This document shows, piece by piece, positions 22,598 to 38,438 of a stretch of DNA of 58,743 nucleotides (positions within the stretch are counted from its first letter, which is position 1; each line of letters begins with the position of its first letter). The position numbers and the translations under genes are program-made. The notes under the pieces are model-generated. The model saw nothing but the letters and a program-made list of their open reading frames with translations. It searched no databases and was not told where the DNA came from. The DNA comes from a virus (Duplodnaviria; Caudoviricetes), in IMG/VR virus record IMGVR_UViG_3300011434_000345, positions 1-58,743 of that record. One strand, 5' to 3'.

Positions 22598-23347
22598 ATG
22601 GACCTGTCCGCGCAGCCGGGCACGCTCCTGGAGCTGTCTACGCCCTGTCCCCGCTGTGGAGGGACGATGGGCTGGCTGCCGCCAGGGCCACACGGCATGA
22701 CGGTAAAGCTCGGCTGCGCGGGCTGCCATGCGTATCTACGCACCTTGACACGCCCCACACTGAAGGAGATGACGATGCCTCTCGAGATGCTGGCGCCCCC
22801 CTCGGCGCCGATGATGACTGGCGCCCCCCGCCCCGAGCCGGACGACATCATTGACCCAGAGGTTCCCCCAGGCACCCTGGACACCCCCATCGCCGAGCAG
22901 CCCCCTCACAGCCCCGTGGAGGCACGCGCCACAACCCCCCGTCCCGACACCTTGCCCGACGGCGTGATGCCCCTGGCAAACGGGCTGTGCGCGTACATTC
23001 GTGACAAGATGCATACCTTCATGATGGACGAGCACAAGGGCCTCATGCAGACGCTGGATGCCACGCTGGTGGCCATGCGCAAATGGGTGGAGATTGTCGG
23101 GCAGCAGAATGAACATGCGCAGTATTCGCTCGCCGATGCGCTGACGAAGCTCCAGGCGGACGGCCTCACGGTCATCCATCCCCCGTACCAGGCCGTGCTG
23201 CACGTGCAGACGCCCGCAGGCTATGCGCTGGCGCTCACGATTACGAAGTCCTCGTCGAGTGCCCTGGTGGAGGAGTTGGGCCGCCTGGAGGGCTGGTTGC
23301 AGGGGCACGGATATGGGGCGCCCCCCAGGCAGGCGGGGCAGCCATGA
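22598..23347 (+). CDS. Hypothetical protein with N-terminal Zn ribbon
   Basis: CPRC...CAGC; ATGA overlap with the next gene. Confidence 0.55.
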   Translation: MDLSAQPGTLLELSTPCPRCGGTMGWLPPGPHGMTVKLGCAGCHAYLRTLTRPTLKEMTMPLEMLAPPSAPMMTGAPRPEPDDIIDPEVPPGTLDTPIAEQPPHSPVEARATTPRPDTLPDGVMPLANGLCAYIRDKMHTFMMDEHKGLMQTLDATLVAMRKWVEIVGQQNEHAQYSLADALTKLQADGLTVIHPPYQAVLHVQTPAGYALALTITKSSSSALVEELGRLEGWLQGHGYGAPPRQAGQP

Positions 23348-23853
23348 GCGGCAAGCTCACGAAAGCAAAACATAGACATGGACACCGCACAAGCACATAC
23401 ACATCGCCCACATGGATTTCCTGGAGAGCCATGCATGAGCGCTGCTATACCCCAGGTGCCGCAGATTATCCCCGCTACGGTGGTCGTGGGATCCTCGTCT
23501 GTGCAGCATGGAGATTCTCTTTTGTCACGTTTCTTGCGGATATGGGTGAACGTCCATCAGGGATGACTTTGGACCGCATACACGTGAATGGGCCGTATAG
23601 TCCAGAGAATTGCCGATGGGCTACGGCAGATGAGCAAGCAGCCAATACGAGCGCAAACGTTCATCTGACATGCAGAGGAAAAACACAAACGCTTAAAGCC
23701 TGGGCGCAAGAGCTTGGCATAAATCGACATACTCTCGCCTGGCGTCTCAAGCAGGGGAAAAGTGTCGAGCAGGCACTTACCGATCCCATTATGCCTCGTG
23801 GTGAACGGGGAATATTGGGGCTGAAGGCGCGAGGAGTCATAGATGTCTTTTAA
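23344..23853 (+). CDS. HNH homing endonuclease
   Basis: W..M..RC....YGGRGI.VC..W..F..FLADMGERP.G.TLDRI..NG.Y.PENCRWAT..EQ..N; lower GC. Confidence 0.88.
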   Translation: MSGKLTKAKHRHGHRTSTYTSPTWISWRAMHERCYTPGAADYPRYGGRGILVCAAWRFSFVTFLADMGERPSGMTLDRIHVNGPYSPENCRWATADEQAANTSANVHLTCRGKTQTLKAWAQELGINRHTLAWRLKQGKSVEQALTDPIMPRGERGILGLKARGVIDVF

Positions 23854-24328
23854 GAAAAATAACTATCCTCCAAATTGGCAAGCGTTGCGAGCTGAAGTAT
23901 TACGGCTGGCAGAAGATCGTTGTCAATGTACCGGCGAATGTGGCAGCGATCATCGGGTGGATGGGATCCCTGGCAAGCGCTGTGACATCCCAAACCATGC
24001 ACGCATTGTTCGTGACTCAGTGACCCCTGCGCACTGGTGGGAGGAGAGAGACGCCCCGCGGCATCACCTTGGCGATGACTGTAAGGTGGTCACGTGCAGA
24101 CTGACCATCGCGCATCTGTGCCACGAGAGCACCTGTGATAATCTCGAACATTTACGGGCGATGTGCCAGCGGTGCCACTTGGTCTACGACGCAACGCAGC
24201 ATGCAGCGCATGCCATGCAGACCAGGTGGCAACAACGCGACGCTGCTGGGCAAATGAGGCTCTGCCTGCTCGCCGCCGAGGGGCCGCCGCCCGCCAGTCC
24301 CCCCATGCGTGGGAAGGAGTCGCCATGA
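23843..24328 (+). CDS. HNH-like protein
   Basis: YPPNW...RCQC.GECG...LTIAHL.H....NLRAMCQRCHL.YD. Confidence 0.75.
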   Translation: MSFKKNNYPPNWQALRAEVLRLAEDRCQCTGECGSDHRVDGIPGKRCDIPNHARIVRDSVTPAHWWEERDAPRHHLGDDCKVVTCRLTIAHLCHESTCDNLEHLRAMCQRCHLVYDATQHAAHAMQTRWQQRDAAGQMRLCLLAAEGPPPASPPMRGKESP

Positions 24329-24517
24329 ATCCCATCATCCTATACGACCGTCTCGCCGAAGTCAGCGAGGACCTCTATCGGGCCATCACGTTGAGCGTCC
24401 TGCCCGACCGGGCCGCCCTGGAGGCGCTGTGGGTGCGGCTCGATGACCTCGTGGAGCAGTTACCGCAGGCGCTCCAGGAGATGGTCCACCCTGATGAGGT
24501 GGACCTGCCGTAAGCCA

Positions 24518-24590
24518 GGCGGGGCGGGGCCAGGCTCGGCGGGGCGGCGCGAGGCAAGGAAGTCATAGGGGGCACGTTGATGCGTGCCCC
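24518..24590 (+). repeat. GGCNN pentamer run followed by an 8-bp hairpin
   Basis: ggcgg ggcgg ggcca ggctc ggcgg ggcgg cgcga ggcaa, then ggggcacg-ttgatg-cgtgcccc (24569-24590). Confidence 0.6.
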
Positions 24591-24619
24591 ACTACTAAGG
24601 CATCACCCTGCGAGAGAGG

Positions 24620-24967
24620 ATGATTCCCATGTCAGAGAGTATAGCCCATCTGGTGGACCCGGAGTTACGCGGCCTGACCCGCGCCAATGTCTTTGGCCTC
24701 CGTGATCACCTGGCTAAACACTACGCCTACTGGTTCAAAAGTATTCCCATCGACGAACTCTACTCCGCGGGCAACCTCGCCATTGCCGAGACCCTCGCCG
24801 CTGCGCCCGCTGACCTGACACCGACGCAGCTCGCCGCCCTGCTCTATCACGCCATCCGTCATGCCATCCTTGCGGTGTGGCACGAGGAGCATGCGCGTCA
24901 GCACCCCCCCTTCGCCGCCGTGAATGTCGAACGGGTCACGACGAGGAGAGTCCGCCATGCCGCGTAA
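24620..24967 (+). CDS. Sigma-factor region 2-like fragment
   Basis: IDELYSAGNLAIAE...LLYHAIRHAI resembles the EDLIQEGNIGL...TYA..WIRQAI pattern; no region 4 HTH. Confidence 0.4.
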   Translation: MIPMSESIAHLVDPELRGLTRANVFGLRDHLAKHYAYWFKSIPIDELYSAGNLAIAETLAAAPADLTPTQLAALLYHAIRHAILAVWHEEHARQHPPFAAVNVERVTTRRVRHAA

Positions 24968-25268
24968 CCGCGCGCTCCCGCAGGCCGACCCCACGCAACA
25001 CTTGGCGGACAGCATCGCGGCGAAGAAAGCCCAACTGCGCCGCATGGAGGCGCGGCTGCGGGCGACGCACCAGCGAGACCGCCAGGCGCAGTACGTCCGG
25101 GCGGGGAAGATTGTCGAAAGCTGCGGGCTCCTGGATGCATCCAGTGAGGTCCTCCAGGCGGTGCTTCGGGCGGGAGGGGAGTGCGTCGAGCGGCACGTGC
25201 AATGCGCGCCCGCCACCCCCGCACTCCAGGAAGACGCAACGACAAACACTCAGGAGCCCAGGCCATGA
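24957..25268 (+). CDS. TraD/MobC-like relaxosome accessory protein
   Basis: Basic coiled coil then R.R....VRAGKIVESCGLL, resembling the TraD-type LIELGGLVVKAGL motif; upstream of oriT and relaxase. Confidence 0.55.
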   Translation: MPRNRALPQADPTQHLADSIAAKKAQLRRMEARLRATHQRDRQAQYVRAGKIVESCGLLDASSEVLQAVLRAGGECVERHVQCAPATPALQEDATTNTQEPRP

Positions 25269-25474
25269 TGGCGGAAGACGTAACCTCCCTCTTGTACCAG
25301 ACAAAACTGGCAGAGAGCATTGGGCAGGCACGGCGGTTGATTCTCCAGGGGGCCGTGCGGATCAATGGAGTGCCAGTGACAACCCTCGACGCCCAGGTGC
25401 AACGAATCCCTGGCACAATATACCGCGTGCAGTGTGGGAACAAAACGGAAACGTGGACCGTCGCAATCCTGTGA
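25265..25474 (+). CDS. Stand-alone S4 RNA-binding domain
   Basis: LAESIGQARRLILQGAVRING, as in the TyrRS C-terminal S4 domain. Confidence 0.7.
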   Translation: MMAEDVTSLLYQTKLAESIGQARRLILQGAVRINGVPVTTLDAQVQRIPGTIYRVQCGNKTETWTVAIL

Positions 25475-25496
25475 CAGGAAACCCCGAAAATTGAAC

Positions 25497-25530
25497 AAGC
25501 GCGATAACTCATATGTCTACGACATATGAG
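25497..25530. other. Candidate MOBQ-type origin of transfer (oriT)
   Basis: AAGCGCGATAA adjacent to a perfect 10-bp inverted repeat CTCATATGTC-tac-GACATATGAG, 38 nt before the relaxase ATG. Confidence 0.6.
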
Positions 25531-25568
25531 CTCGTAACGCAGGAAAGAAGAAGGAAAGTCAGAGCAAC

Positions 25569-26675
25569 ATGGCCATCGTAAACTTTCGGGTGAACCACCT
25601 GACACAACGGAGTAGCGGGGCAACCAGTCGCGTGGTGCAGTATCTGACACGCGAGGGGCGCTACGCACCGACCCAGGCCGAGGTGGAGTATCTCACCCGG
25701 ACGTCACCGGCGACTGCCGAACGAGACGACCTCGTGTACCAGGAGACGGCGAATCTGCCCCCATGGGCGCACGGAGATGCACAGACGTTTTTTAAGATGG
25801 CTGAACGCATGGAGGGGGAGAACAGACGGTGGGGAACCACCTGGCAGCTCGCATTGCCCAGAGAGCTGGGGCAGGAAGCACAGAGAGCCATGGCCCGCGC
25901 GTTTCTTGAAACGCACTTAGCCAACCATGCGTATCTGTTCGTGATCCACGATCCCGTGAGTGACGCAGGGCAGCATCAGCCGCATGTGCATGTGCTCTTC
26001 AGCGAGCGCGCGCAGCCAGCACACATCCCAGGTCCAACCATGTATTTTAGGAGACCAGAAGCGGGAGGCTGTGCCAAAGATCGCTGGTTGAATCATCGGT
26101 CCGTAGTCACCGAAGTGCGACACGCCTGGTGCGACTGGACCAACTACACCCTCGAGCGGGCGGGGCACGAGGCACGCATTCACCCGAGCAGTCTCTACAA
26201 GCGCAACATTGACCGTCAACCGGAGCCCAAGGTTGGCCCAGGCAAGGACCCGACAGCCATGGCCGAGCGAGCGCGCATCCGCCAAAGCCGAGACGAGGCA
26301 CGCGAGCAGGCCATGGCGGCGGAGGGGTGGGCATTGCGCAAAGCGAAGCTGGGCATCACCGACGTACAGACACTGCCGCCTCCCCAATTTTTAGCCGAGA
26401 GTCGCATACGGGCACGCGGCGTCCAGCCCGGCCAGTGGGCATCGGGCGCCCCGTCACCCCAGCAGCAGACGCAGGCACGCACCAGACGCCAGCGCCAGGC
26501 CATCGAAAGGAGTATGGAGGGCCTGGAAACCGAACTCCGCATTTTGACCAGGCGGCAACAGACACTGCATCTCCCCCGTGCGCCACGGCGAGACCGTGAG
26601 GCCATGGGCGTGGGCTTGCGGGCGAACTTCCGCGAGGAGGACGAGTATGGACGACAGACCGGCTATGGTCGCTAA
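25569..26675 (+). CDS. mobA: MobA/MobL-family (MOBQ) conjugative relaxase
   Basis: Catalytic Tyr in QYLTREG, NLPPWA, LALPREL, HUH motif IHD...QPHVHVLFSER, W....N..LERAG...RI...SL. Confidence 0.93.
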   Translation: MAIVNFRVNHLTQRSSGATSRVVQYLTREGRYAPTQAEVEYLTRTSPATAERDDLVYQETANLPPWAHGDAQTFFKMAERMEGENRRWGTTWQLALPRELGQEAQRAMARAFLETHLANHAYLFVIHDPVSDAGQHQPHVHVLFSERAQPAHIPGPTMYFRRPEAGGCAKDRWLNHRSVVTEVRHAWCDWTNYTLERAGHEARIHPSSLYKRNIDRQPEPKVGPGKDPTAMAERARIRQSRDEAREQAMAAEGWALRKAKLGITDVQTLPPPQFLAESRIRARGVQPGQWASGAPSPQQQTQARTRRQRQAIERSMEGLETELRILTRRQQTLHLPRAPRRDREAMGVGLRANFREEDEYGRQTGYGR

Positions 26676-27051
26676 CAACGCAGCGGCGCGGGGCTGGGAG
26701 CCCAAAGCCCCAGAGCGCGTGTTGCAGGCACTCCGCGCCGACCTCGACCGCTTTCAGGAGGCATGCCTGGCGAAGCTCCGGGAGAACCTGGGGCAGGAGT
26801 TGACCGCACATCACGGAAGAGGCACTGCCGAGATGCGCGAGTGGTACGAAGCCCGCGAAACATTTGTGCGCAACATTTGCGCAGACATGGGGGTGCGCAT
26901 TCAGGACGCGTGTGCTCCCATGTTGGACGTAGCCGCCAAGGTCACGCTCGGGAGACGGACACCGGCAGAGGCGGCGCAGCACCGCATTCAGCACCGCTTG
27001 GATGCCAGGACACAACCACGCCAGGAGCAGGGCTATGGCCACCGCTACTGA
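26647..27051 (+). CDS. Hypothetical protein overlapping the relaxase 3' end
   Basis: 134 aa helical; ends QEQGYGHRY, similar to the relaxase tail RQTGYGR. Confidence 0.55.
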   Translation: MDDRPAMVANNAAARGWEPKAPERVLQALRADLDRFQEACLAKLRENLGQELTAHHGRGTAEMREWYEARETFVRNICADMGVRIQDACAPMLDVAAKVTLGRRTPAEAAQHRIQHRLDARTQPRQEQGYGHRY

Positions 27052-27373
27052 CCTGACCGCGATCAATGAGACACTCGACGATCTGGGCGCCGTGCTAACG
27101 CATCACGGCGACATTCTCACGCACCTGGAGCAGCGCCCCGTGCCTGACATCGCGGGGCTGGCGCGGCGCCTCGAGGACGTCGCGGATGCAGTGGACCGGC
27201 TGCACGCGCCGGAGCCAGCGATACGCCCCTGGTGGTACACCCCGGCAGCGGTGAGTCTCGCTCTGGCGCTCGGGTGGGGGCTCTGTTGGGCGACGGTGCG
27301 CTGGCTGCCGGGGGCACTGTTGCCGCCCGGCTTTACACGGATGGACCCGGTGAAGCAGAAAGGACGGTTTTAG
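27035..27373 (+). CDS. Coiled-coil protein with one TM helix (possibly MobB-like)
   Basis: Heptad N-terminus, then PWWYTPAAVSLALALGWGLCWATV. Confidence 0.5.
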   Translation: MATATDLTAINETLDDLGAVLTHHGDILTHLEQRPVPDIAGLARRLEDVADAVDRLHAPEPAIRPWWYTPAAVSLALALGWGLCWATVRWLPGALLPPGFTRMDPVKQKGRF

Positions 27374-27694
27374 ATGACGGACAAGTATATCCTACAGGGC
27401 ACAACCCCTGTGAAAGAAGAAGACCTGCTCGCATGGGCGCAATGGTTTGAAACAGCCAATCGCCAGGTAGTAGAGACATGGATCCCCCCAGACATTCGTG
27501 TCAGTACGGTTTTTCTAGCGCTCGATTACCAGCGGGACGAGGGGCCGCCGCTCCTCTTTGAAACCATGGTTTTTGGGGGAGCCTGCGACCAGGAACAAGT
27601 ACGCTATAGCACCTGGCACGAGGCGGAACACGGCCACGAAGCGATGGTACTCCGTGTGCACGAGGCGGAACGTGAGTCGGGGGAAAGTGCCTAA
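27374..27694 (+). CDS. Phage-type hypothetical protein
   Basis: VSTVFLALD...PLLFETMVFGG...RYSTW.EAE.GH; I recall this motif from phage genomes, not checked against a database. Confidence 0.65.
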   Translation: MTDKYILQGTTPVKEEDLLAWAQWFETANRQVVETWIPPDIRVSTVFLALDYQRDEGPPLLFETMVFGGACDQEQVRYSTWHEAEHGHEAMVLRVHEAERESGESA

Positions 27695-29013
27695 TGTTTC
27701 GCACCGCGCAAGCCGCCCATGCCCACTGGAGCACCCGTCGCCAACTCCGTCAGGCCGGGCTCTATGCCACTGAGGGGCTCATCCTGGGCACGGCCCACGG
27801 GCGGCTGGTGCGCCACAATGGGCCAGAGCACGCGCTGGTGGTGGCGAGTACGCAGAGCGGCAAGACGGCGAACTTCGTGTATCCCAATCTGTTGACCTGG
27901 CGACAGAGCATGCTGGTGCATGACCCAAAGGAAGAGCTCTTTGCCGAAACAGCGGCCTGGCGCAGCACGTTCTCCCAAGTCGTGCAACTCGCGCCAGCAT
28001 CCTCCCTCTCGCACCACTACAACCCCCTGGATGCGATCCGCCTGGGGACGGAGCAGGAGATCCGGGATGTCCAACTCCTGAGCGAAGCCCTGACGGACCC
28101 GGAAGGGCAGGGGGGCGATAAGCGCAGCGGGGCGAGCCAGCACTTTAGCGAGATGGCGGCCGAGGCGATGGGGGGGCTCATCCTGTATGGGCTCTACACC
28201 CAACGGGCGCGGTCGCTGGGCGCCCTCAACGCCCTGCTCACCGCCACGCCCTTCAAGGCCCTACTGGCAGCGATGAAAGGGTACCCACATGCCGGCATCC
28301 AACGGGCGGCCGCCGTCCTCACGCAGACGGACGGCAGAGACGAGAGTAGCGGCATCTTCAGCACCACGAGTCGCACGTTGCGGCTGTACACCGACCCGCT
28401 CCTGGCCCGCATGACGGACACCAGCGATTTTACCGTGCGGGATCTGCGGGAGCGGGTCCGCCCGATGAGTCTGTACCTGTCGATCTCCTTTGGCGACCAA
28501 GAGCGGCTGCGCGGCTGGACGCGCCTCGTGCTGCGGCAAGTGCTCGATTACTGCGTCTCCAGGAAGGAGGGCTGGACGCATCGGCTGCTGGCCATGATTG
28601 ACGAGGTGCCGGGCTTGAAGCGACTCAATATCCTCACGGATGGGCTCAATTACTTTGCGGGGTATGGGGTCCAGTTGGCACTCATTACGCCGAGCATGAA
28701 GGAACTGGTGGATACCTATGGCGCGAATCATAACTTCCTAGAAGGGTGCAAGATCCAGATCGTCTTTGGCATGCACGACGCCAAAGTGGCAGAAATCTTT
28801 AGCGCCCGCGTGGGGCACACGGAGGTGACGAAGACCAGACAGATGGGACGGCAGCGCGTGAGAGAGCAGGTCAAAGAGGCGCTCTTATCCCCCACGGCCC
28901 TCATGGAGTTGCCGGGGGATTGTGCGCTGGTGATCGTGGGACGCGACAAGGTGATCGCGAAGAAGACCTACTACAAAGCCAATGCGGCCTGGGCCGCAAG
29001 GAGCAGGATGTAG
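27694..29013 (+). CDS. traG: Type IV coupling protein (VirD4/TraG family) lacking N-terminal TM helices
   Basis: EHALVVASTQSGKT..VYPNLLTW..S.LVHDPKEE, YNPLDAIR, TSDF...DL, RLLAMIDEVPGL, YFAGYGV. Confidence 0.92.
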   Translation: MFRTAQAAHAHWSTRRQLRQAGLYATEGLILGTAHGRLVRHNGPEHALVVASTQSGKTANFVYPNLLTWRQSMLVHDPKEELFAETAAWRSTFSQVVQLAPASSLSHHYNPLDAIRLGTEQEIRDVQLLSEALTDPEGQGGDKRSGASQHFSEMAAEAMGGLILYGLYTQRARSLGALNALLTATPFKALLAAMKGYPHAGIQRAAAVLTQTDGRDESSGIFSTTSRTLRLYTDPLLARMTDTSDFTVRDLRERVRPMSLYLSISFGDQERLRGWTRLVLRQVLDYCVSRKEGWTHRLLAMIDEVPGLKRLNILTDGLNYFAGYGVQLALITPSMKELVDTYGANHNFLEGCKIQIVFGMHDAKVAEIFSARVGHTEVTKTRQMGRQRVREQVKEALLSPTALMELPGDCALVIVGRDKVIAKKTYYKANAAWAARSRM

Positions 29014-29015
29014 TT

Positions 29016-29597
29016 ATGTTCAAGCACTACATCAATAAGATAGGCAATAGAACTCTAGTCAAAATAGGATCGAAGGCAGCACAAAGAGAATCACTCACGA
29101 GTGGCCGAATCACGAGAGCCGAATGGCTGCGATTTATGAGCAATATAGTCATGAATGAGCCCTGTTTATGCACGCCAGAAACCCCGCATTTTCATTGGCT
29201 CTGGCAAGGGAAAAGGATCAAAAACTATGGACGATTCATGTGGCGTGGGGTGGGGATATACGCCCATGTCTTTGCCTGGGTAGCATTGCGCGGGGCTCTT
29301 GCGGAAGGCATGGTGCGGGATCACCTCTGCAAGATCAAACATTGCTGCAACCCAGCATGTCTAGAAGAAGTCACGAGCGGAGAAAATACGCGGAGAGGAG
29401 AGACAACGTTAGCGGCGCAACAACTCTTGCAAACACATTGCAAGCGGGGGCATCTGCTCGACGGAGACAATCTCGTGCCCAATGGGCTGCGACGAGGTAA
29501 ACGCTGGTGCAAGATATGTAGAAATGCACGGTCGAAAGAATCAAAACAGCCGCTGCGTCAGCAGGCGCGGCAAGAAAGGGCGAAGAATGCAGCCTAA
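29016..29597 (+). CDS. HNH endonuclease inserted in the transfer operon
   Basis: WLWQG...YGRF...AH..AW...DHLC....CCNP..LE.VT..EN.RRG...THCKRGH; lower GC. Confidence 0.85.
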   Translation: MFKHYINKIGNRTLVKIGSKAAQRESLTSGRITRAEWLRFMSNIVMNEPCLCTPETPHFHWLWQGKRIKNYGRFMWRGVGIYAHVFAWVALRGALAEGMVRDHLCKIKHCCNPACLEEVTSGENTRRGETTLAAQQLLQTHCKRGHLLDGDNLVPNGLRRGKRWCKICRNARSKESKQPLRQQARQERAKNAA

Positions 29598-30021
29598 AAC
29601 TGAGTTTATACTGACAAGTGCCATACTGGCAGTTTCGTGTGCTTCCTATGCTTTTGGAAATACGGGGCTTCCCTGGGAGTCGGGATTGCAGACCGTAGCC
29701 AACAGTATTTCGGGGCCAGCCGGGGGCGCGGTGTGTACGGCCGGGATTGCCTGGTCCGGCTTTAATTGTTATCGCGGGACGGAGCACGGCAAAGAAGCCC
29801 TCATTAGCGCGGGCTTTGGCACGGGTATTGTGATGGGCTCGCCGCGCATTGTCTCGCTCCTCGGGGGCGGGGCCAGTGGCGCAGGGCTCGACGTGGCCCC
29901 CCTCCTCCCCCTGGCGACGGTGCTGAGTGACCTCGTGGGCGAACTGCTCGGGCATGGCGTGTACGCGGCCTGGCTATTTGGCGGGCTGCTGCTGCCCCTC
30001 GCATGGAGGAAACAGGGATGA
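29587..30021 (+). CDS. trbC: TrbC/VirB2 pilin
   Basis: Signal peptide, then GLPWESGLQTVANSISGP and hydrophobic segments. Confidence 0.8.
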   Translation: MQPKTEFILTSAILAVSCASYAFGNTGLPWESGLQTVANSISGPAGGAVCTAGIAWSGFNCYRGTEHGKEALISAGFGTGIVMGSPRIVSLLGGGASGAGLDVAPLLPLATVLSDLVGELLGHGVYAAWLFGGLLLPLAWRKQG

Positions 30022-30287
30022 CCGACATCCCCGGCTTTGCAGCGCCGTGTTACCACAGCCTGACCCAGCCGCACCTGCTGGCGGGGGTGCCCCGGAGCTT
30101 CTTCATTCTGGACGTGGTAGCGATGATGCTCTGGGGCTTGTGGTGTCTGGTCTATCCGGCGCTGTGGCCGGGGGTATTCGTGGGCATCACCGTGTACGCC
30201 GTGGTGTGGTGCGGCACCAAGTACGATACGGACTTTTTTGACATCCTCATCGAGCACGTCGGGCACGCGCATCACTACGAAGGGTAA
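30018..30287 (+). CDS. trbD: TrbD/VirB3
   Basis: IPGF..P.YHSLTQP.LLAGVPR, two TM segments, K.D..FFDIL..H. Confidence 0.88.
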   Translation: MTDIPGFAAPCYHSLTQPHLLAGVPRSFFILDVVAMMLWGLWCLVYPALWPGVFVGITVYAVVWCGTKYDTDFFDILIEHVGHAHHYEG

Positions 30288-30293
30288 CGAGGT

Positions 30294-32552
30294 ATGTGGT
30301 TGAAGGAAGTACGGAAAGAGCACCATCGGCTCTCCGAGTTACTGTTCTGGGATTGCCTGGAAGACGCCCCGGGCGTGGTCCTCCAGAAGGACGGCAGCCT
30401 GCTCGCCGTGATCCGGTTCCGTGGCCCGGACCTGGCGTCCGCGCTGGACGCTGAGCTGGTCGCGCAGGCCGCCCGGCTCAATACCCTGTGCAAGCGCTTC
30501 ACGAGCGGCTGGGCGCTCTTCAGCGAGGCCCAGCGCCGGGAAGTGCGGACCTACCCCGCGGCCACGTGGCCGGACCCGGTGAGTCGCCTGGTGGATCAGG
30601 AGCGCCGCCAGCATTTCACGGCCCCTGAGCGTCACTACGAGACACACACGTATCTTACCCTCGTCTACGCGAAGCCTCGGGAAGCCGTCAGCATGTGGAG
30701 ACGGTGGTTGTTCGACAATCTTCCGAGCACCGACCCGGATACCCATACGCTGGGGTATTTTGTAGACGAGGTGCAGCGCACGCTGGATCTGCTCCGGGAC
30801 TGTTGTCCAGAAGCCGACCTCCTCACCGCCGAGGAGACCACGCCAGGGCAGTCGCCCCTTCTCACCTATCTGCATAGCACCGTGAGTCCCACGGCGCATC
30901 CGGTGGGCCTGCCCGCCGAGACGAGCTATCTCGATACCCTCCTCACCGACACGGACCTCTACACCGGCCTGTATCCGAGTTGGGGCGATCCGCAGGACCC
31001 ACTCACGTTCGCGGGGTATCTCGCATGTCTCAGTGTGCGCAGCTATCCCGACGCCACGTATCCAGGCATCCTCGATGTGCTCAATCAGTTGCCGATGGCC
31101 TACCGGGCGGTCCTGCGGTATCTGCCCCTCGACGCCCCCCACGCGGCGCGGGAGATTTACAAGTACCGCCGCAAGTGGTTGGGGGCCACCAAGCGCACGA
31201 GTACCCTCCTGGCGGAAAAATTCAGCAAGCAGCCGAGTGCCCTGGTGGAACACGCAGCCGTCGCGTACATGGACGAAGGGGGTGAGGCGCAAGCGCAGGT
31301 GGAGCATGGGTATGTGAGCTTCGGGTATCTCAGCAATACGATTGTCCTCTGGGATAAGGGATTCGAGACGCTGAGCCGGAAGGTCAAAGACGTAGAAGCA
31401 GCACTGACGGGCCTGGGGTGCGTGGTGAAAGTCGAGGACCTGAACGCCTGTGCCGCCTGGCGGGGCACGATTCCCGGCGATGTGTACAGCAACGTGCGGC
31501 GGCCCCTCTTGCACTCGATGAACCTGGCGCATCTGCTACCCGCGACGGCCCCGTGGAGTGGCCCGCAGGAGAACACGCATCTGCACGGGCCGCCGCTGCT
31601 GCGCACGACCGGACGGGGGCAGACCCCGTTTAACCTCGATACCTACGAGGGGGATGTCGGGATGGCCTACATCGCAGGCCCGATTGGCAGCGGCAAGTCC
31701 ACGCTCCTCGCCACCATGGTCATGGCCTGGCTCAAATACCCCGGCGCCGAGGTCAAAATCTTCGACACCGGGCAAAGCCTCCGCTGCGCCACGTATGCCA
31801 TGGGTGGACAGTGGTACGACGTCGCCGCCGAATTGAAACGGCAAGCAGGGCAGCAGGGCGCCCGCCTCGATGATCGCGCGACGAAGCCCTGGGGCGCGCC
31901 CTGGATGCCCCCGACCGCGCGGTGGCAGTGTTTCGAGATGGAGGACCTCTTAAAGACGCCCGACGTGCTGCCCACGGTCATGGGGCCACTCCTCCAGACC
32001 CTCAAGGAACGCATGACGGGCGCCCCCACGCTGTTTGTCTTTGACGAAGGACATCTCTATTTGAAGCAGCAGGTGCTCATGGATGGCATTGACGACTATA
32101 TCCGTGGGCTGCGGAAGAAGAACGGGGCCGTGCTTGTCGCGACCCAGAGCATTGCCGATGCGACCCGCAGCGCCCTGGCCCCGATCATCAGTGACTCGGC
32201 GATGACGCGGTTCTTTCTCGCCAACTTTCATGCCCTCGAGCACGACACCGCAGCACTGTACGAGGGGTGGGGGCTGAACGAGCGTGAAAGGCAGATCATC
32301 GCCGGGCTCGTGCCCAAGCGTGAATACTACTACCAGGGGCGGCATGGACGGCGAGTCTTTGAGCTATCGCTCGGGCCGGTCGGGCTGGCGTTCGCCGGGG
32401 CCAGTCGCAAGGCGGACCTGGCGGCGATGACGGCACTGTACCAGGGAGACCCCATGCAATTTGCCCTCGACTGGCTCCATGCACGGGGCCTGCATCATGA
32501 GGCCGATTATCTCAAGAGTGAAGGGTATGCAACGAAGGAGAAGGCTCTATGA
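30294..32552 (+). CDS. trbE: TrbE/VirB4 ATPase
   Basis: PGVVLQKDGS...FRGPDL.SA, D.ERR..F..HYE, W.G.IPG..Y.NVRRP, Walker A GPIGSGKS, Walker B FVFDEG, LRKKN..V..ATQS. Confidence 0.95.
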   Translation: MWLKEVRKEHHRLSELLFWDCLEDAPGVVLQKDGSLLAVIRFRGPDLASALDAELVAQAARLNTLCKRFTSGWALFSEAQRREVRTYPAATWPDPVSRLVDQERRQHFTAPERHYETHTYLTLVYAKPREAVSMWRRWLFDNLPSTDPDTHTLGYFVDEVQRTLDLLRDCCPEADLLTAEETTPGQSPLLTYLHSTVSPTAHPVGLPAETSYLDTLLTDTDLYTGLYPSWGDPQDPLTFAGYLACLSVRSYPDATYPGILDVLNQLPMAYRAVLRYLPLDAPHAAREIYKYRRKWLGATKRTSTLLAEKFSKQPSALVEHAAVAYMDEGGEAQAQVEHGYVSFGYLSNTIVLWDKGFETLSRKVKDVEAALTGLGCVVKVEDLNACAAWRGTIPGDVYSNVRRPLLHSMNLAHLLPATAPWSGPQENTHLHGPPLLRTTGRGQTPFNLDTYEGDVGMAYIAGPIGSGKSTLLATMVMAWLKYPGAEVKIFDTGQSLRCATYAMGGQWYDVAAELKRQAGQQGARLDDRATKPWGAPWMPPTARWQCFEMEDLLKTPDVLPTVMGPLLQTLKERMTGAPTLFVFDEGHLYLKQQVLMDGIDDYIRGLRKKNGAVLVATQSIADATRSALAPIISDSAMTRFFLANFHALEHDTAALYEGWGLNERERQIIAGLVPKREYYYQGRHGRRVFELSLGPVGLAFAGASRKADLAAMTALYQGDPMQFALDWLHARGLHHEADYLKSEGYATKEKAL

Positions 32553-33316
32553 AAAAGGGTGGACTGTCCTTGCTATTCCTCGTGGTGCTGCCGGGCTTCG
32601 CCCATGCAGGCGGCCTCCCGGTCTACGACGGGGTGGCTGATATCACTGCCAAATGGAATGCGATACAACGAACGGCGGCCGAAGTGCGCGCCTACGCACA
32701 ACTCATCAAGAGCTACGAAAACGACATACGCGGCGTCTACAACACGGGGGAAATGGTCTATCAGGGCTCGAAGCAGCTTGTGTCGATGCCGAAAGACCTC
32801 TCCGTCATGGGCCTGCTCTACCATTACGATAGTGCCGCCGCCCGCCTTACTGGCATGGTCAGCACCTCGACCACGACCATGGGCCGCATTTACGACCAGG
32901 TAGGCACGGTGGCTACGGCCGAGGGCCGCGCCACGCTCCTCCAAGACATGCAGACAGAACGGACCCGCCTCATGCAAATCCTCATTGTCGCCAAGACCGA
33001 CCAGCAGTGGATTGCCGACGCCCAAAAACGCCTGCGGGACATCGCGCAGGCGGCCACCGACGCCGAGGGACAAAAAGCCGTGGCGCAGGCGATTGCCCAA
33101 GCCGCTGCCATGCAGGCCGCGCACACCAAGCAGGTGCAGGCATGGGATGAGGCCGTGGCGAAAGTGGCGCTGCTCGAGAAGTTGGAGCAGCAGGCCCTCC
33201 GCGAGGCCCAGGCCCTGAAGGCCCAGGAGGACGCCAGGAGCTGGTATGCCACGCGGCCGATGGCACTCCCAGGGAACTTTCACGGCTTCATGCTGACCCC
33301 GCAGGGAGGACGCTAG
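32549..33316 (+). CDS. trbJ: TrbJ/VirB5-like protein
   Basis: Signal peptide (AHA), GLPVYD, Q/A-rich helices, AEGQ.AVAQA; lies between trbE and trbL. Confidence 0.65.
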   Translation: MKKGGLSLLFLVVLPGFAHAGGLPVYDGVADITAKWNAIQRTAAEVRAYAQLIKSYENDIRGVYNTGEMVYQGSKQLVSMPKDLSVMGLLYHYDSAAARLTGMVSTSTTTMGRIYDQVGTVATAEGRATLLQDMQTERTRLMQILIVAKTDQQWIADAQKRLRDIAQAATDAEGQKAVAQAIAQAAAMQAAHTKQVQAWDEAVAKVALLEKLEQQALREAQALKAQEDARSWYATRPMALPGNFHGFMLTPQGGR

Positions 33317-33319
33317 CGT

Positions 33320-34267
33320 ATGCTGTTGTTCGATCTCCTCAGTGCGTTCCAGGCCGTGCTCAGTCTCGGCATGCACACTGCAGGCCCGGTGACGGCCCGC
33401 TTGTTTATGCTCTTGGCCACCCTGGAAATGGCCGCCCTCGGGCTGTGGTGGGTGTACAGCCATGACAACACCATGGGTCTGGTCATGTTCCGCGTGCTGA
33501 CGATTGCTGTGTTCCTGTGGCTCATGCAAGACTGGCAGACCATCACGGGCGCGATGCAGGAGAGTTTTATGCGGCTGGGCCTCCTGGTGGGCGGCAATCA
33601 GCTCGGCATGGGACCGATGCACAAGGCTGGCATGGCCCTCATCGAGAAAGGCCAGGAGTTGTTTCTGGCCATCCAGGGCAAGACGCTGGACCCGACCTGG
33701 CTGCAACATCTCGGCAATACGGTGAGTGACCTCACCCTGGGGCCGACGGGCTGGAGTCGGCTCATCCTGGCCTGGATGGTCCTCTTCGCGTTCCTGATTG
33801 CGGGGATTCACGTCTTTGCGGTGCAGCTGGAATTTGTGTTCTGTAGCGCCATGGCGTTTATCACCATCCCCTTTGCGGTCTGGCACCGCACGGCCTGGGT
33901 CAGTGAACGCACCTTTGGCGCGGTGGTGGGCTCGGGCCTGAAGCTGGCCTTTCTCTACATGCTGGCGAGTGCGAGTATCCCGGTACTGCGACAGTATGTC
34001 GCCCCCGCCGTGCCCACGCAGCAAGACAGCCTGTCTATGCTCGGCGCGGGGGGGTTGATCTTGTTTCTGCAATGGGGTGCCCACAAGCTGGCCAGTGGCA
34101 TCCTACACGGCATGCCGTCTTTTACCCAGAGCGATGTATTGCCCCCCATGCGCTCGGTGGTCTCGCTCGGGACAGTGGGGCTGGCAGCCGGGGCACGCGG
34201 CCTCACGAGCGCGGCCCACGGGGCGGCACGGCTGGGCAGTCTGGTTGCCCAGCGAAGGAGACCCTAA
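33320..34267 (+). CDS. trbL: TrbL/VirB6 inner-membrane channel protein
   Basis: Polytopic; LEF......ITIPFAVW..T.W.SERTFG.VV.SGLKL. Confidence 0.88.
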   Translation: MLLFDLLSAFQAVLSLGMHTAGPVTARLFMLLATLEMAALGLWWVYSHDNTMGLVMFRVLTIAVFLWLMQDWQTITGAMQESFMRLGLLVGGNQLGMGPMHKAGMALIEKGQELFLAIQGKTLDPTWLQHLGNTVSDLTLGPTGWSRLILAWMVLFAFLIAGIHVFAVQLEFVFCSAMAFITIPFAVWHRTAWVSERTFGAVVGSGLKLAFLYMLASASIPVLRQYVAPAVPTQQDSLSMLGAGGLILFLQWGAHKLASGILHGMPSFTQSDVLPPMRSVVSLGTVGLAAGARGLTSAAHGAARLGSLVAQRRRP

Positions 34268-34404
34268 TGCGCAAGACCCTCTGGACAAGCGTGAGAATCC
34301 TGGGCTGGGCCGCGTGGGGCGCAGGCATAGGCATTGTCGCCCTGCTCGCCATTCCGGTCGCGATCCTCTGTCTACTGCCGAAACAACGAGGGGGGTGGCT
34401 ATGA
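34267..34404 (+). CDS. 45-aa membrane peptide between trbL and trbF
   Basis: TAATG and ATGA coupling on both sides; ILGWAAWGAGIGIVALLAIPVAILCLL. Confidence 0.5.
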   Translation: MRKTLWTSVRILGWAAWGAGIGIVALLAIPVAILCLLPKQRGGWL

Positions 34405-35072
34405 TCGCCCCCAACGTGACCCCGACCGGCACGCTCGACACGCCCGCCATGCGCGGCAAGCGCCACCGCGCCGACGAGCTAGGCGAGCGGGTCATGATCG
34501 CCCGCAACTACCGCTATGCCCTCTATCTGGCGCTGCTCGGCAACCTCCTGGCCCTGGGGGTCGTGGGCCTCCTCGTCCAGCGGCCCCGCGATGTGGTGTA
34601 CATCGAACGCGATGTGCCCACCGGGGGGATGCAGGTGCTCGCCACCGGGGAGCGCCCTCCGGCCCTCAGTGAGGCGACCATCAAGAAAGAACTGCGGGAG
34701 TTCGTGCAGACCATGCGCCGGGTCCACGACGCCAAAGCCCTCATGCAAGAGGAGTGGAAAGCCCTCTTTAAGAAAGTCACGCCCCGCGGCTATCGGCAGC
34801 TCAGTGCCGAGGCCAGCGCCATGAATCCCCTGGCACTGGAGGGCACCATCACCGTTGAGATACTTCAGGTGCTGAAGCGCGATGAACGGGCCTACGACCT
34901 GCGGTGGAAGGAGACGCGCCTGAGCAACGACGGCGGGCAGATTGGCCAGCACACGTATCGCGGGCTCTTTCTGTGGGTGCCCCGCGACCCCAAGCAGCCC
35001 GTGAGCCTGGATGTCCTCACGGCCAACCCTTCTGGTGTCGAATGGGACACCTGGTCCTGGAGCGAGGAATGA
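34401..35072 (+). CDS. trbF: TrbF/VirB8
   Basis: TP..RG.....E.GE....ARNYR, one TM helix, L..FV...R, Y.LRWKE, NPSG.....SWSEE. Confidence 0.85.
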   Translation: MIAPNVTPTGTLDTPAMRGKRHRADELGERVMIARNYRYALYLALLGNLLALGVVGLLVQRPRDVVYIERDVPTGGMQVLATGERPPALSEATIKKELREFVQTMRRVHDAKALMQEEWKALFKKVTPRGYRQLSAEASAMNPLALEGTITVEILQVLKRDERAYDLRWKETRLSNDGGQIGQHTYRGLFLWVPRDPKQPVSLDVLTANPSGVEWDTWSWSEE

Positions 35073-36286
35073 CCCAACCCCTGACCCCGCGACGGCCCGG
35101 GCGTGCGGTCACACGGTTCAGTACCCGCGCCCTCCTGGTGGGGGGCGCCCTCCTGGTCCTCCTCATCCTCGGCGGCGTCCTCCTGCCCCTGACGTGGCAG
35201 CGGGGCACGCCCGCCGTCGCCACGGAGCCGCCTACCCCTCAGCGTCTGAGCGTGCCTGAGGTGATCACCCGGCCGCTGCCCGCACGGATGACCCCTACCG
35301 CCGCCCCCATTGTGCAGGACCCCGTGCCCATCATCCAGGCGCAGCCGGATACGACGCCCGACACCGGGCGGGTAATCCGGCAGCAGAGTTTCCTGGAGAC
35401 GCTCAACCCGTTTGCCACGCAGGCGGTCCCGGTGCCGAAGGAGCCGCCGGCCGCGCAGACATCTCCCTCACCAACAAGCAAGGCAACCCCCACCGCCCCG
35501 AAGGAGCCTCCGCCGCGCAAAGGCTGGGCGGTCTTGGCGACACCCAAGCAACGCGAGCCGCAGCCGGGCATGACGCCGGTGGGGCTCCCAGGGCATGAGG
35601 AGAGGCCCTCTGAGATCCCCGTCGCCACGCAGGGGCAACATGGGACAGGCGCAGCGCAGAATCTCATCCAGCCTGCCCGCTGGGCGATCCCCGCGCAACC
35701 GCTGAAGACGATCTACCGCAGTCAGACCTTGACGGGCAGGCTGTTGCAAGCAGTGAATAGCGACATCCCTGGTGGGCAAGTGAAGATGCAGTTGACCACG
35801 CCGGTCCTAGATCGCTTTGGCTACGATACGGTCATCCTGCCGAAAGATACATTGATTATCGCGAGCCAGGATACCGCAGTTCGGTACGGAACCACGCGCC
35901 TCGGCCTCAAGATAGAGCAGTTGGAGCTGCCCTCTGGGGAAGTCATTGCGGTGCAAGCGATGGTCGGGGATCAGAGTGGAGCCAACGGGGTGCCAGGGAA
36001 GGTGAACAATCACCTGGGGAAAGTCATCCTCGCCACAGGGTTGTCGGCCATCCTCAATATCGGGGTACGGACGGCCACAGGGACGCCTGGCGCGGGACAA
36101 TTCTTCCAAAATCCGATCCAACAAACCGGAGCGGATATTGGGCAGGCGGTCCAGCGGGATACCCAGAGCATCATTGACAGGGAACTCAGGGTACCCCCGA
36201 CAGTGACCATTCCAGCGGGAACCTTCTGCACCATCAACTTGACGGAGAATATCACCTTTGCCAGACCACCAGTGATGGCACGCTAG
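35069..36286 (+). CDS. trbI: TrbI/VirB10
   Basis: TM helix, Pro-rich linker, L..AVNSDIPG, VILPKDT.II, DQSGANG..G.VNNH, VPPTVTIPAG. Confidence 0.88.
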   Translation: MTQPLTPRRPGRAVTRFSTRALLVGGALLVLLILGGVLLPLTWQRGTPAVATEPPTPQRLSVPEVITRPLPARMTPTAAPIVQDPVPIIQAQPDTTPDTGRVIRQQSFLETLNPFATQAVPVPKEPPAAQTSPSPTSKATPTAPKEPPPRKGWAVLATPKQREPQPGMTPVGLPGHEERPSEIPVATQGQHGTGAAQNLIQPARWAIPAQPLKTIYRSQTLTGRLLQAVNSDIPGGQVKMQLTTPVLDRFGYDTVILPKDTLIIASQDTAVRYGTTRLGLKIEQLELPSGEVIAVQAMVGDQSGANGVPGKVNNHLGKVILATGLSAILNIGVRTATGTPGAGQFFQNPIQQTGADIGQAVQRDTQSIIDRELRVPPTVTIPAGTFCTINLTENITFARPPVMAR

Positions 36287-36293
36287 GAGCCCT

Positions 36294-36986
36294 ATGCGAA
36301 AAACTACCCATCTCTTCATCTGTGCACTTTTCCTCAGTGGCTGCACCCTGGCTCCCGAGCCCGTGCCCCCAACGCTCCCGATGCCGGAGCCAGCGCCTGT
36401 GGCAAGTGACACTTTTGCCCCGCCCTACTGTCCGCTGGACCGGGTAGAAATTGCGCTGCTGCCCCGCGAGGCCGCGATTCGTCCCTTTGCGAAGCCCATT
36501 GCAGCCCTGGAGAAGAAAGCCCCCAAGCCCCAGACCCCTGCCCAGCTCGTCACCCACGCGCAGCAGGCGGCACGGGTCGAGCCCAGCGAGCGCGGCTACC
36601 ACGGAGGCAGTGGGGAACAGGTGTATCAGTGGGCAGCAGGGAAGGTGTACACAGTCTATCTCTCGAAGCAGCAAGGCACCGGGATCTTCCTGCCGCTTGG
36701 GGAGCGGCTCGTGAGTGGCTTGTACTTAGATCAAGATGCGTTTGAGGTCAAGACGGAACGGGCTGGGACCGGCGATGCGGCGTATGATGCGCTCACGGTG
36801 CGGCCCCTCACGGACCGTGGGGAAGTCTCGACATTTGTGCTGACGGAGTCTGGCAGGCGCTACTTGCTCCATTTTGTGGTGGGGCAGACGGGCATGTTGG
36901 CCGTCACCTTCGAGGGGTTGCCTGTCGCAACACCGGTGCGAGTCGCCGCAGAGCCGCCACTGATCCTGCCACGGCCGACCCCCTGA
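36294..36986 (+). CDS. trbG: TrbG/VirB9-like lipoprotein, C-terminally shortened
   Basis: Lipobox LSGC; A..AARVEP...GY....QVY.W..G.VY.VY......T.I.L..GERL, V.T..RRYLL. Confidence 0.75.
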   Translation: MRKTTHLFICALFLSGCTLAPEPVPPTLPMPEPAPVASDTFAPPYCPLDRVEIALLPREAAIRPFAKPIAALEKKAPKPQTPAQLVTHAQQAARVEPSERGYHGGSGEQVYQWAAGKVYTVYLSKQQGTGIFLPLGERLVSGLYLDQDAFEVKTERAGTGDAAYDALTVRPLTDRGEVSTFVLTESGRRYLLHFVVGQTGMLAVTFEGLPVATPVRVAAEPPLILPRPTP

Positions 36987-36993
36987 GCCAGCC

Positions 36994-37062
36994 GACGGCG
37001 TGTGCGGGGCTGGCTCGGGCGAAGCCCGCACACGCCAGCCCCGCGGGCCTAGCCCCGCCGTC
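36994..37062. terminator. Inverted-repeat cluster where the transfer arm and late arm converge
   Basis: ggcgtgtgcggg/cccgcacacgcc (36997-37036), alternative stem gcggggctggc/gccagccccgc, outer gacggcg/cgccgtc; no U-tract. Confidence 0.4.
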
Positions 37063-37063
37063 A

Positions 37064-37417: not shown

Positions 37418-37435
37418 GGTATGCGCTCTGCCTGC

Positions 37436-38224: not shown

Positions 38225-38231
38225 AGCACCC

Positions 38232-38435: not shown

Positions 38436-38438
38436 GCG

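Follow-up and report, generated by a model that had tools for sequence, protein, structure and literature searches.

A conjugation-type operon with later inserted genes in a complete tailed-phage genome

Genes and junctions of the transfer operon

The window analysed here is the whole of the IMG/VR virus record IMGVR_UViG_3300011434_000345 (58,743 bp; Duplodnaviria, Caudoviricetes), called G000 below where it is compared with three related viral records (G001-G003) and with metagenome loci (numbered with L). IMG/VR places the record in the class of direct terminal repeats, and its first 123 bases are exactly its last 123 bases, so that the assembly is circular and the window is a complete tailed-phage genome; with the repeat counted once it measures 58,620 bp. 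A block (24620-36986) that separates the early genes from the tail genes, and converges on the latter, encodes a relaxase, a type IV coupling protein (T4CP) and eight type IV secretion genes; two further genes, here named HNH3 and F106, have been inserted in it. We show that this operon is an old, selected part of the phage lineage and not a recent plasmid insert. Taken as a whole, the element is probably a temperate tailed phage with P22-type head genes, a complete circular genome and a compact, old operon for its own conjugative transfer, to which two inserts were added later.

The order of the block is A-B-C, hairpin, MobA-type relaxase, D, E, F106, T4CP, HNH3 and trbC-D-E-J-L-F-I-G. Its features are the following (aa, amino acids; GC3, GC content at third codon positions; oriT, origin of transfer):

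24620-24967, plus strand: gene A, 115 aa; GC3 0.73; a 37% identical homologue lies 5' of the relaxase in G002
24957-25268, plus strand: gene B, 103 aa, basic, pI 9.05; a 37.5% identical homologue in G002
25265-25474, plus strand: gene C, 69 aa, S4 RNA-binding-domain protein; Pfam S4, E 6.7e-10
25508-25530, plus strand: candidate oriT hairpin, a perfect inverted repeat (10-bp arms, 3-nt loop), 39 nt upstream of the relaxase start
25569-26675, plus strand: relaxase of the MobA/MobL type (MOBQ-like), 368 aa; Pfam MobA_MobL, E 3.2e-19
26647-27051, plus strand: gene D, 134 aa; frame chosen by GC3 (0.75 vs 0.49 in the rival frame)
27002-27373, plus strand: gene E, 123 aa, with one hydrophobic stretch; kept 5' of the T4CP
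27374-27694, plus strand: F106, 106 aa, inserted between E and the T4CP
27694-29013, plus strand: T4CP (TraG/VirD4 family), 439 aa; Pfam T4SS-DNA_transf, E 1.7e-58, with TraG-D_C and TrwB_AAD_bind
29016-29597, plus strand: HNH3, free-standing HNH endonuclease gene, 193 aa; Pfam HNH_3, E 4.9e-08; phrog_826, E 5.7e-35
29587-30021, plus strand: TrbC/VirB2 pilin; Pfam TrbC, E 1.4e-13
30018-30287, plus strand: TrbD/VirB3; Pfam VirB3, E 1.8e-07
30294-32552, plus strand: TrbE/VirB4 ATPase, 752 aa; Pfam CagE_TrbE_VirB, E 6.4e-11
32549-33316, plus strand: TrbJ/VirB5-position protein, named by position only, with no family match; 69% identity in L019
33320-34267, plus strand: TrbL/VirB6; Pfam TrbL, E 1.3e-18
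34401-35072, plus strand: TrbF/VirB8; Pfam VirB8, E 2.1e-16
35069-36286, plus strand: TrbI/VirB10; Pfam TrbI, E 1.1e-29; ATGA overlap with trbF
36294-36986, plus strand: TrbG/VirB9-like protein, weak; Pfam CagX, 28.1 bits, under the 34.2-bit cut-off; 75% identity in L019, 61% in G001

Among the parts of a type T mating-pair formation system (MPF-T), TrbC, VirB3, TrbL, VirB8 and TrbI pass their cut-offs, together with the relaxase and the VirB4 ATPase. The genes are tightly packed: 14 of the 16 junctions from A to trbG overlap or are at most 7 nt apart, and the two exceptions are the 94-nt gap that holds the candidate oriT and a 133-nt gap before trbF. The genes at 24620-25474 form a chain toward oriT, as a first reading made from the sequence only had described; A and B overlap by 11 nt, B and C by 4 nt (ATGA), and the hairpin lies in the 94-nt gap between C and the relaxase at 25569. 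The ATG of gene D (26647) is preceded by GAGGAGG, and the gene shares 29 nt with the end of the relaxase gene; it is 90% identical in L017.

Around the two inserted genes the junctions are equally close. The stop codon of E (TAG, 27371-27373) is followed with zero spacer by the ATG of F106 at 27374, and F106 in turn ends in TAA (27692-27694) one nucleotide into the T4CP start (ATG, 27694-27696), forming TAATG. The T4CP stop (29011-29013) is separated by 2 nt from the ATG of HNH3 at 29016, which has AAGGAG 13-18 nt upstream, so that its ribosome-binding site is located inside the 3' end of the T4CP gene. The overlap of the HNH gene with the trbC start, also pointed out by that first reading, is read directly from the sequence and measures 11 nt (HNH3 stop 29595-29597, trbC ATG 29587). 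A stop-start overlap or abutment is therefore retained on both flanks of HNH3 and of F106.

Gene starts were picked by eye from ribosome-binding sites and relatives. For trbC the start at 29587 was preferred on two grounds, a TrbC Pfam match that sets in at residue 7 and alignments to relatives that set in at residue 4; the trbD start at 30018 (ATGA overlap with trbC) follows the N-terminus of the L019 protein, and that of trbF a Shine-Dalgarno site together with the L019 N-terminus. Translational coupling along the block is likely, judging from the overlapping stops and starts, and packing of this kind is ordinary for operons.

The three genes before the hairpin are less easily assigned. Gene A has no Pfam match and one weak PHROG match (E 0.008), while gene B has neither a Pfam nor a PHROG match and is a candidate relaxosome accessory protein from its position only. 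No homologue of gene C was found in any fetched relative at E < 1e-4; this gene, immediately ahead of the oriT gap, may be a third insert specific to the lineage. In L019 a 77-aa cysteine-rich open reading frame (ORF, 7293-7526) is located between trbL and trbF, where the window has the 133-nt gap; this is another variable slot of the operon.

The inserted genes HNH3 and F106

HNH3 matches Pfam HNH_3 and nine PHROG endonuclease families. By tblastn, HNH3-like genes are present in 252 of 50,697 phage records and in 8 of 72,556 plasmid records, and seven of these eight plasmid records are Streptomyces replicons of 20-102 kb. HNH3 is thus, as predicted from its sequence matches, a free-standing gene of the homing-endonuclease type, of a kind common in phages, with putative cleavage and homing activities. 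Genes of this class, such as the seg and mob genes of T4, are free-standing homing endonuclease genes of phages, and HNH3 resembles them in being wedged between conserved genes, in its absence from close relatives, in its lower GC3 and in using the expression context of its neighbours. It differs in its target, which is a conjugation operon and not a pair of replication or structural genes.

HNH3 is young, sporadic and compositionally foreign to the operon (GC3 0.54, GC 0.51). At the T4CP-trbC junction it is absent from all 11 relatives in which the end of the T4CP gene and any of trbC, trbD or trbE are covered, and at E < 1e-4 no homologue was found in any of the 19 metagenome loci or in G001-G003. 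The stop of the T4CP and the start of trbC overlap in L019/G002. The same slot contains a VirB11-family gene (PF00437) in L023 (E 6.4e-21) and L025 (E 6.5e-28), so that HNH3 occupies the position of trbB (VirB11) in more distant relatives; in L027 a 321-aa ORF is found there.

Traces of alleles without the endonucleases were also seen in sequencing runs. One low-depth contig each from runs X1 and X2 joins position 29011 to 29661 and skips HNH3, and one contig from run X2 joins 23366 to 23936 and skips HNHa, which with HNHb is one of two endonuclease genes immediately 5' of the transfer block. These joints, whose short sides are only 22 and 33 letters, hint at HNH-less variants. During co-infection HNH3 would spread by cutting such HNH-less alleles.

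The second insert is a different case. The first reading had described the gene at 27374-27694 as a phage-type gene sharing a TAATG junction with traG; the junction is there, whereas the label was a guess, since at E <= 0.01 F106 matches no Pfam or PHROG family. The gene (GC3 0.61, ratio of nonsynonymous to synonymous substitution rates, dN/dS, 0.34) is present between E and the T4CP in 2 of the 7 loci holding both, L019 and L020/G002 (which have an identical T4CP), and is missing from the nearest relative, L017 (T4CP 83% identical), where E runs directly into the T4CP. It has 140 homologues, none of them named. Its family is found in 9 phage records and 29 plasmid records, and in the ESM Atlas its clusters are 58-97% viral among members with a taxon. 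An AlphaFold2 model has a predicted local distance difference score of 96.5 and gives five BFVD matches, all of them proteins of uncultured tailed phages, and no match of the fold in the PDB at E <= 0.001.

F106 is acidic (pI 4.5), as are its relatives (74 of 85 homologues below pI 5.5); this is only a lead toward a DNA-mimic or anti-defence role. Homologue contexts were examined on two plasmids, of Aeromonas and of Nostoc, and in a Mesorhizobium phage; all are arrays of small hypothetical genes, and in none of the three does the homologue adjoin a T4CP. By its distribution F106 is a mobile-element gene found mostly, not only, in tailed phages.

HNH3 and F106 are both later additions to the operon, young and lineage-specific. 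Their tetranucleotide profiles do not distinguish them (r 0.77), whereas GC3 does separate the inserts. That the module had collected phage accessory genes, as first supposed, applies in part: HNH3 is clearly phage-type, with the 252 to 8 distribution given above, while F106, at 9 to 29, occurs on phages and plasmids alike. What the two inserts show is that phage-style mobile genes are now acting on the operon, and not how long the operon has been resident.

A further selfish gene is found in a relative. The TrbE/VirB4 protein of G001 (28834-32082, the same as L009 8834-12082; 1082 aa) contains an in-frame Hint and LAGLIDADG intein, which lies between the parts matching residues 1-473 and 465-743 of the TrbE of the window. 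From these sequences the transfer operon appears now to host phage-style selfish genes, an HNH gene here and a TrbE intein in G001.

Residence of the operon in the phage lineage

A search with the T4CP found 61 relatives, many on contigs of 55-62 kb, and the scans yielded the three viral records and 19 metagenome loci. In the scan of viral contigs the single T4CP protein gave 0 relatives and the alignment-based scan gave 3. Among 185,579 species genomes no relative was confirmed from 11 (T4CP) and 31 (TrbE) pattern matches; as each of these scans used one or two peptide patterns, relatives may have been missed.

The composition of the block is that of the phage around it. Of the 16 tra genes called, 15 have a GC3 of 0.68-0.83 (the misframed call of D has 0.49), and the structural genes have 0.71-0.82. 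Relative synonymous codon usage of the tra genes correlates with that of the structural genes at r 0.93 and with that of the early genes at r 0.94. For tetranucleotides, the correlations of the transfer genes with the head (0.76) and early (0.79) modules match those of the phage modules among themselves (head-early 0.74, head-tail 0.64). Within the block GC dips only at the HNH genes. The comparison of trb with capsid genes by GC3, codon usage and tetranucleotides, which had been proposed as a check together with the sequence-only reading, therefore gives no break at the module edges.

The relatives carry the same arrangement. G003 is complete, with 55,645 bp and direct terminal repeats, and has the same gene order; its identities to the window are 32% for the portal, 37% for the coat, 45% for the T4CP, 37% for TrbE, 38% for TrbI and 32% for the relaxase, so that transfer and phage modules diverged alike. 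In G002/L019, which are closer, identities are 95% for the large terminase gene terL, 85% for the portal, 90% for TrbE, 82% for E and 57% for the T4CP. Three records of 55.6-58.7 kb retain both the head and the transfer modules.

Purifying selection has acted on the transfer genes. Over seven transfer-gene comparisons dN/dS is 0.07-0.28 with a synonymous divergence (dS) of about 0.7-2.1; the values are 0.15 for the T4CP, 0.07 for TrbE, 0.19 for TrbJ, 0.15 for TrbL, 0.12 for TrbG and 0.13 for the relaxase (against L020), and those of phage genes are 0.06 for terL and 0.13 for the portal. As dS reaches 0.8-2.1 between phage-borne copies with low dN/dS, the divergence inside phages has been long. 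No plasmid offers a close source: the best T4CP identity among at least 5000 matching plasmid records is 34.9%, and that among five phage records is 32.2%. The claim of the first reading that the module has lived in a phage for a long time is borne out, mostly by composition, relatives, dN/dS and the distance from plasmids and less by the two inserts, and its argument against a recent plasmid insertion agrees with the distant plasmid T4CPs and with the absence of a compositional break.

The phage-transfer junctions are not a product of the assembly, as had also been argued. The same junctions between phage and type IV secretion system (T4SS) genes recur on separate contigs from other samples (G002, G003, L019), and Logan contigs of run X1, assembled by a different program, bridge both edges of the module, at 22899-27418 (from the early genes) and 29746-39303 (toward the tail genes); this run possibly comes from the source sample and is thus not sample-independent. 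Runs X2-X4 cover only 6-8% of sampled words, and uncovered stretches were not counted as evidence.

One segment of the operon has a history of its own. The stretch F106-T4CP-TrbC-TrbD (27390-29733) is only 55-62% identical to L019, while it is flanked by E at 82% and TrbE at 90%; recombination has therefore swapped a segment inside the operon. The X1 contigs break at 27390-27418 and 29733-29746, which are the edges of this segment mosaic between relatives, and its contig depth in that run is slightly higher, 8.9 against 7.2-7.4.

Outside the block, the window contains the tailed-phage hallmarks, large terminase, portal and major capsid protein, as well as a tailspike and a fibre for tail and receptor binding (HTH, helix-turn-helix):

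4351-5601, minus strand: coat; Pfam P22_CoatProtein, E 9.4e-32
5611-6537, minus strand: scaffold-position gene, named by position
6722-8833, minus strand: portal; Pfam P22_portal, E 4.1e-140
9221-10744, minus strand: large terminase; phrog_2, E 5.9e-32
14853-15725, minus strand: tyrosine recombinase (integrase); Pfam Phage_integrase and phrog_1
15860-16324, minus strand: cI-like HTH protein; HTH_31/HTH_3 matches for the cI/Cro pair
16135-16662, plus strand: Cro-like HTH protein, divergent from cI; HTH_31/HTH_3 matches for the cI/Cro pair
23344-23853, plus strand: HNHa endonuclease; phrog_3377, E 4.1e-49; GC3 0.48
23843-24328, plus strand: HNHb endonuclease; phrog_1571, E 8.2e-16; GC3 0.62
38756-39832, minus strand: fibre with S74 chaperone domain; Pfam Peptidase_S74
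39843-44159, minus strand: tailspike, 1438 aa; four Big_7 domains and Beta_helix

The minus strand also encodes an 809-aa ejection-type protein with an SLT domain, and an AAA_25 helicase is encoded in the plus-strand/switch region. The tyrosine recombinase is the only PF00589 match in the record. A scan for ParB_N gave no match in G000. Maintenance genes vary among the carriers: a single tyrosine recombinase is encoded by G000 and by G002 and none by G001 or G003, and ParB is found only in G001. The tailspike (39843-44159) has two homologues in G001, at 47628-49517 and 54425-58234, with 43-63% identity. Amid the structural genes a low-GC cluster (48553-52140) comprises a methyltransferase (GC 0.59), a group-1 glycosyltransferase (GC 0.49), a 184-aa ORF (GC 0.44) and a 387-aa ORF; the glycosyltransferase gene and its adjoining ORF, at 49-51 kb, deviate from the rest of the genome with their GC of 0.44-0.49, and the cluster is probably later-acquired surface-modification cargo.

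A reduced transfer machine and its possible role

The relaxase of the window aligns with MobA of RSF1010 (2NS6) at E 3e-14; the H...PHxH stretch of the histidine triad is kept, and a tyrosine is aligned to the N-terminal tyrosine region of MobA. As in RSF1010, the His-rich metal site is retained and an inverted repeat is found just upstream, as in MOBQ oriTs; the window protein differs in lacking a primase domain, in its length of 368 aa and in a YLTR stretch repeated twice. These two Y-L-T-R stretches lie in the N-terminus (25569-25720), at about residues 24-27 and 41-44, and the second aligns to the MobA tyrosine region.

The inverted repeat at 25508-25530 is a candidate oriT, as judged from its sequence and position. 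Its fold has a z-score of -2.45. Hairpins with a 3-nt loop precede the relaxase start by 38-61 nt in four cases, with arms of 10 bp in the window, 9 bp in G002 and G003 and 7 bp in L027; the arm sequences differ and the arms covary in four of the five relaxase upstream regions examined, and no long hairpin precedes the relaxase of G001. The motif CTCGTA occurs just 3' of the hairpin in the window and in G002, and also upstream of the G001 relaxase.

The T4CP begins about ten residues before the conserved soluble domain; its ATPase domains are present, and its Walker A motif aligns to that of Cag5. In a tree of 52 T4CP proteins, built without six fragments shorter than 380 aa and four distant hits, all 29 short forms (422-492 aa) make up one clade nested among long forms (SH-like approximate likelihood ratio 96), and this clade includes the window, G001, G002/L019 and G003. 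The tree suggests a single loss of the T4CP membrane part, at the root of the 29-member clade. The closest T4CP to that of L023 belongs to the short clade, and L023 still has VirB11; the loss of VirB11 therefore came later or more than once. In L027 (2258-3938) the T4CP is spread over two frames, with its hydrophobic N-terminal part in ORF 2258-2653 and its ATPase part in ORF 2439-3938; a frameshift, an error of sequencing or a T4CP that is split by nature could account for this.

Gene E, which encodes a putative small one-pass membrane protein, is present in all seven loci holding the region 5' of the T4CP, with 31-82% identity, and directly abuts the T4CP in five of the seven. The idea that E is the split-off membrane part of the T4CP was dropped, as similar small ORFs, judged by eye, precede the full-length T4CPs of L025 and L027; these ORFs have no tblastn match to gene E.

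How such an operon would work can be sketched conditionally. The operon would still be read as one unit, so that the T4SS genes downstream of the inserts would stay expressed, and the inserts would persist by preserving coupling on both sides. The prophage would nick itself at the hairpin and use its own reduced T4SS to send a single strand into an adjacent cell; conjugation would then be a second route of spread that needs neither a virion nor a receptor. The self-transfer of the prophage by conjugation is the weakest part of this account. We infer it because selection has preserved relaxase, hairpin and T4CP, for which another explanation is difficult to find, and the function of the block as a transfer machine is uncertain because VirB11 and the T4CP membrane part have been lost. 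A wider version is possible, and we offer it tentatively: the window would belong to a temperate tailed-phage lineage of long standing, with genomes of about 55-62 kb and found in sediment- or soil-type metagenomes, whose members are also self-transmissible conjugative elements and spread through virions or through oriT and a streamlined T4SS without VirB11, pilin peptidase or T4CP anchor.

Several observations weigh against a temperate phage that conjugates by its own operon. VirB9 is represented only by the sub-threshold CagX match and VirB5 by position alone. VirB11 (PF00437) is over the cut-off in none of the four records G000-G003, in a search that detected the positive-control genomes, and it belongs to the ancestral gene order of the relatives, as L023 and L025 show. 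No TraF-type peptidase was seen in the window, while L025 has an S26 peptidase of the TraF type. Missing from the T4CP is the N-terminal membrane part, which takes the form of hydrophobic stretches in relatives of 512-553 aa and in TraG proteins of at least 600 aa, a call made from length and from the sequences as read; in model systems, according to work on TrwB, this part is needed for conjugation.

Others concern the phage side. The portal found 1281 relatives, and 108 IMG/VR loci have a related P22-type portal; of the best 80 of these, the 38 on contigs of at least 15 kb were searched for TrbE. It was found in none of the 38, and the same search does detect G000, G001 and G003. Twelve of the 38 are at least 90% complete, eleven of them 30-40 kb and one 58 kb. 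The transfer block is consequently not a general trait of phages with related portals, and its carriers are 16-28 kb larger. As the 58.6 kb of the window exceed the complete T4SS-free relatives (30-40 kb) by that amount, packaging of the whole genome is not assured. Moreover, the portals of G000 and G003 are 32% identical, and that of G000 is 43-44% identical to those of some T4SS-free phages; it follows that either the block or the head module has passed from one phage lineage to another. Finally, G001 has the block and a terminase (phrog_38, E 2.2e-64), yet no recognisable portal or coat, so that the block is not confined to clear phages. In G001 neither was found by tblastn with 38 window proteins or by Pfam and PHROG scans of its ORFs (17-20). 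This linear record, which may be incomplete, carries ParB, an SNF2 helicase, a DUF4942 methylase, DUF932, a Toprim (primase-like) protein and the two tailspike homologues; either it is a cut-down phage or its Ig/beta-helix proteins serve something other than virions. The record may represent a plasmid, an element of the satellite kind or part of a phage contig.

The lost components speak for an alternative in which the block is kept but does not move the phage, serving instead as a pilus for contact or as a receptor, for DNA release or for protein delivery, or being completed by a helper that supplies VirB11 and an anchored T4CP. VirB11, the T4CP membrane part and TraF are all found in distant relatives and are all missing here. 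Against it, the relaxase has retained its motifs and a dN/dS of 0.13, the hairpin covaries, and the T4CP keeps its Walker A motif and a dN/dS of 0.15; relaxase, hairpin and T4CP have no known use except DNA transfer. Some types of conjugation, for example the F type, operate without VirB11. We regard this alternative as unlikely.

The roles might also be reversed, a conjugative plasmid or an ICE (integrative and conjugative element) having captured phage structural genes, so that the element would be a defective prophage or would carry particle-making cargo, and virions with the full genome would perhaps not be made. This would suit G001, with its block, ParB and the other genes named above and no recognisable portal or coat, the lack of an integrase in G001 and G003, and a genome of 55-59 kb that may exceed a capsid known from relatives of 30-40 kb. 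The window itself, however, has terminase, portal, scaffold-position gene, coat, SLT ejection-type protein, tailspike, fibre, integrase and the cI/Cro pair; terL and portal are under strong purifying selection, both modules persist in the three records of 55.6-58.7 kb, and G001, linear and possibly incomplete, does have a terminase. We consider such a reversal quite unlikely. Very improbable is a recent insertion of a plasmid or ICE into a phage, or a phage-plasmid chimeric contig from one sample: it could draw on a T4CP match in only 5 of 50,697 phage records and on a CheckV completeness of only 61%, and it is opposed by the even composition, the distant plasmid T4CPs, the recurrence of the junctions in other samples and across another assembler's contigs, and the dS between phage-borne copies.

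The reading of the window as a temperate phage with its own old transfer operon can be compared with known systems. IncP and Ti plasmids have the order traG-trbB-trbC-trbD-trbE-trbJ-trbL-trbF-trbG-trbI. The block contains the same families as these Trb/Ti-type (MPF-T) operons in nearly the same order (T4CP, VirB2, B3, B4, (B5), B6, B8, B10, B9), and its distant relatives come closer still, with trbB after the T4CP in L023 and L025 and the TraF-type S26 peptidase in L025. It differs in being without VirB11, TraF and the T4CP membrane part, in having trbI before the trbG-like gene, in its location in a phage genome and in a T4CP at most 34.9% identical to those of plasmids.

Phage-plasmids such as P1, N15 and SSU5 likewise unite, as the available text of one source describes them, a tailed-phage gene set with plasmid-type functions in one element, of old descent and no recent fusion; that text has them move in virions and contrasts this with conjugation as an alternative strategy that differs in cost, host range and size limit (PMC12282955). 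According to passages of another source, oriTs were not found in phage-plasmids (PMC10123127). The window, in contrast, has relaxase, T4CP, T4SS and integrase, and no ParB match was found in it. Phages have also been screened for conjugation genes, in a study whose accessible passages contain no count (PMC7969092).

In phage-ICE tandems, of Streptococcus and others, phage and conjugation genes travel together and the phage part is moved through the T4SS; the passages available present them as two elements side by side, "rather than a hybrid element" (PMC13651849). The window differs from them in being one circle with one recombinase gene and a uniform composition, in which the block is conserved within diverged phages, and it does not have the make-up of a tandem. 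Of what defines an ICE, it has one tyrosine recombinase and a conjugation module without VirB11. Closer in gene content is p1002-1 of E. coli, a cointegrate "conjugative phage-plasmid" with phage-plasmid and conjugation genes on one replicon, which the part of the preprint available describes as a fusion of two known replicons with close free-living relatives (10.1101/2025.03.14.643293); the window has no close plasmid relative and its block is conserved across diverged phages. A second preprint, in the text at hand, names conjugative phage-plasmid hybrids in passing. No account of a conserved tailed-phage lineage with its own relaxase, T4CP and T4SS was found in the literature, of which supplementary tables may list cases.

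As far as the available passages of these sources go, the mixtures known so far are recent cointegrates or tandems of two separable elements. If the reading of the window as a conjugative temperate phage is true, one element can hold a virion route and a conjugation route for a long time. This would bear on how phages cross receptor barriers and on prophages that turn up in distant hosts, and also on how classifiers that sort contigs into 'virus' and 'plasmid' treat such elements. The reduced gene set would be a natural test of the minimum of a T-type machine, with a T4CP without its membrane part and no VirB11. Finally, selfish phage genes appear to have been inserted in the transfer operon with the coupling of the junctions unbroken, which would mean that the operon is exposed to genome dynamics of the phage type.

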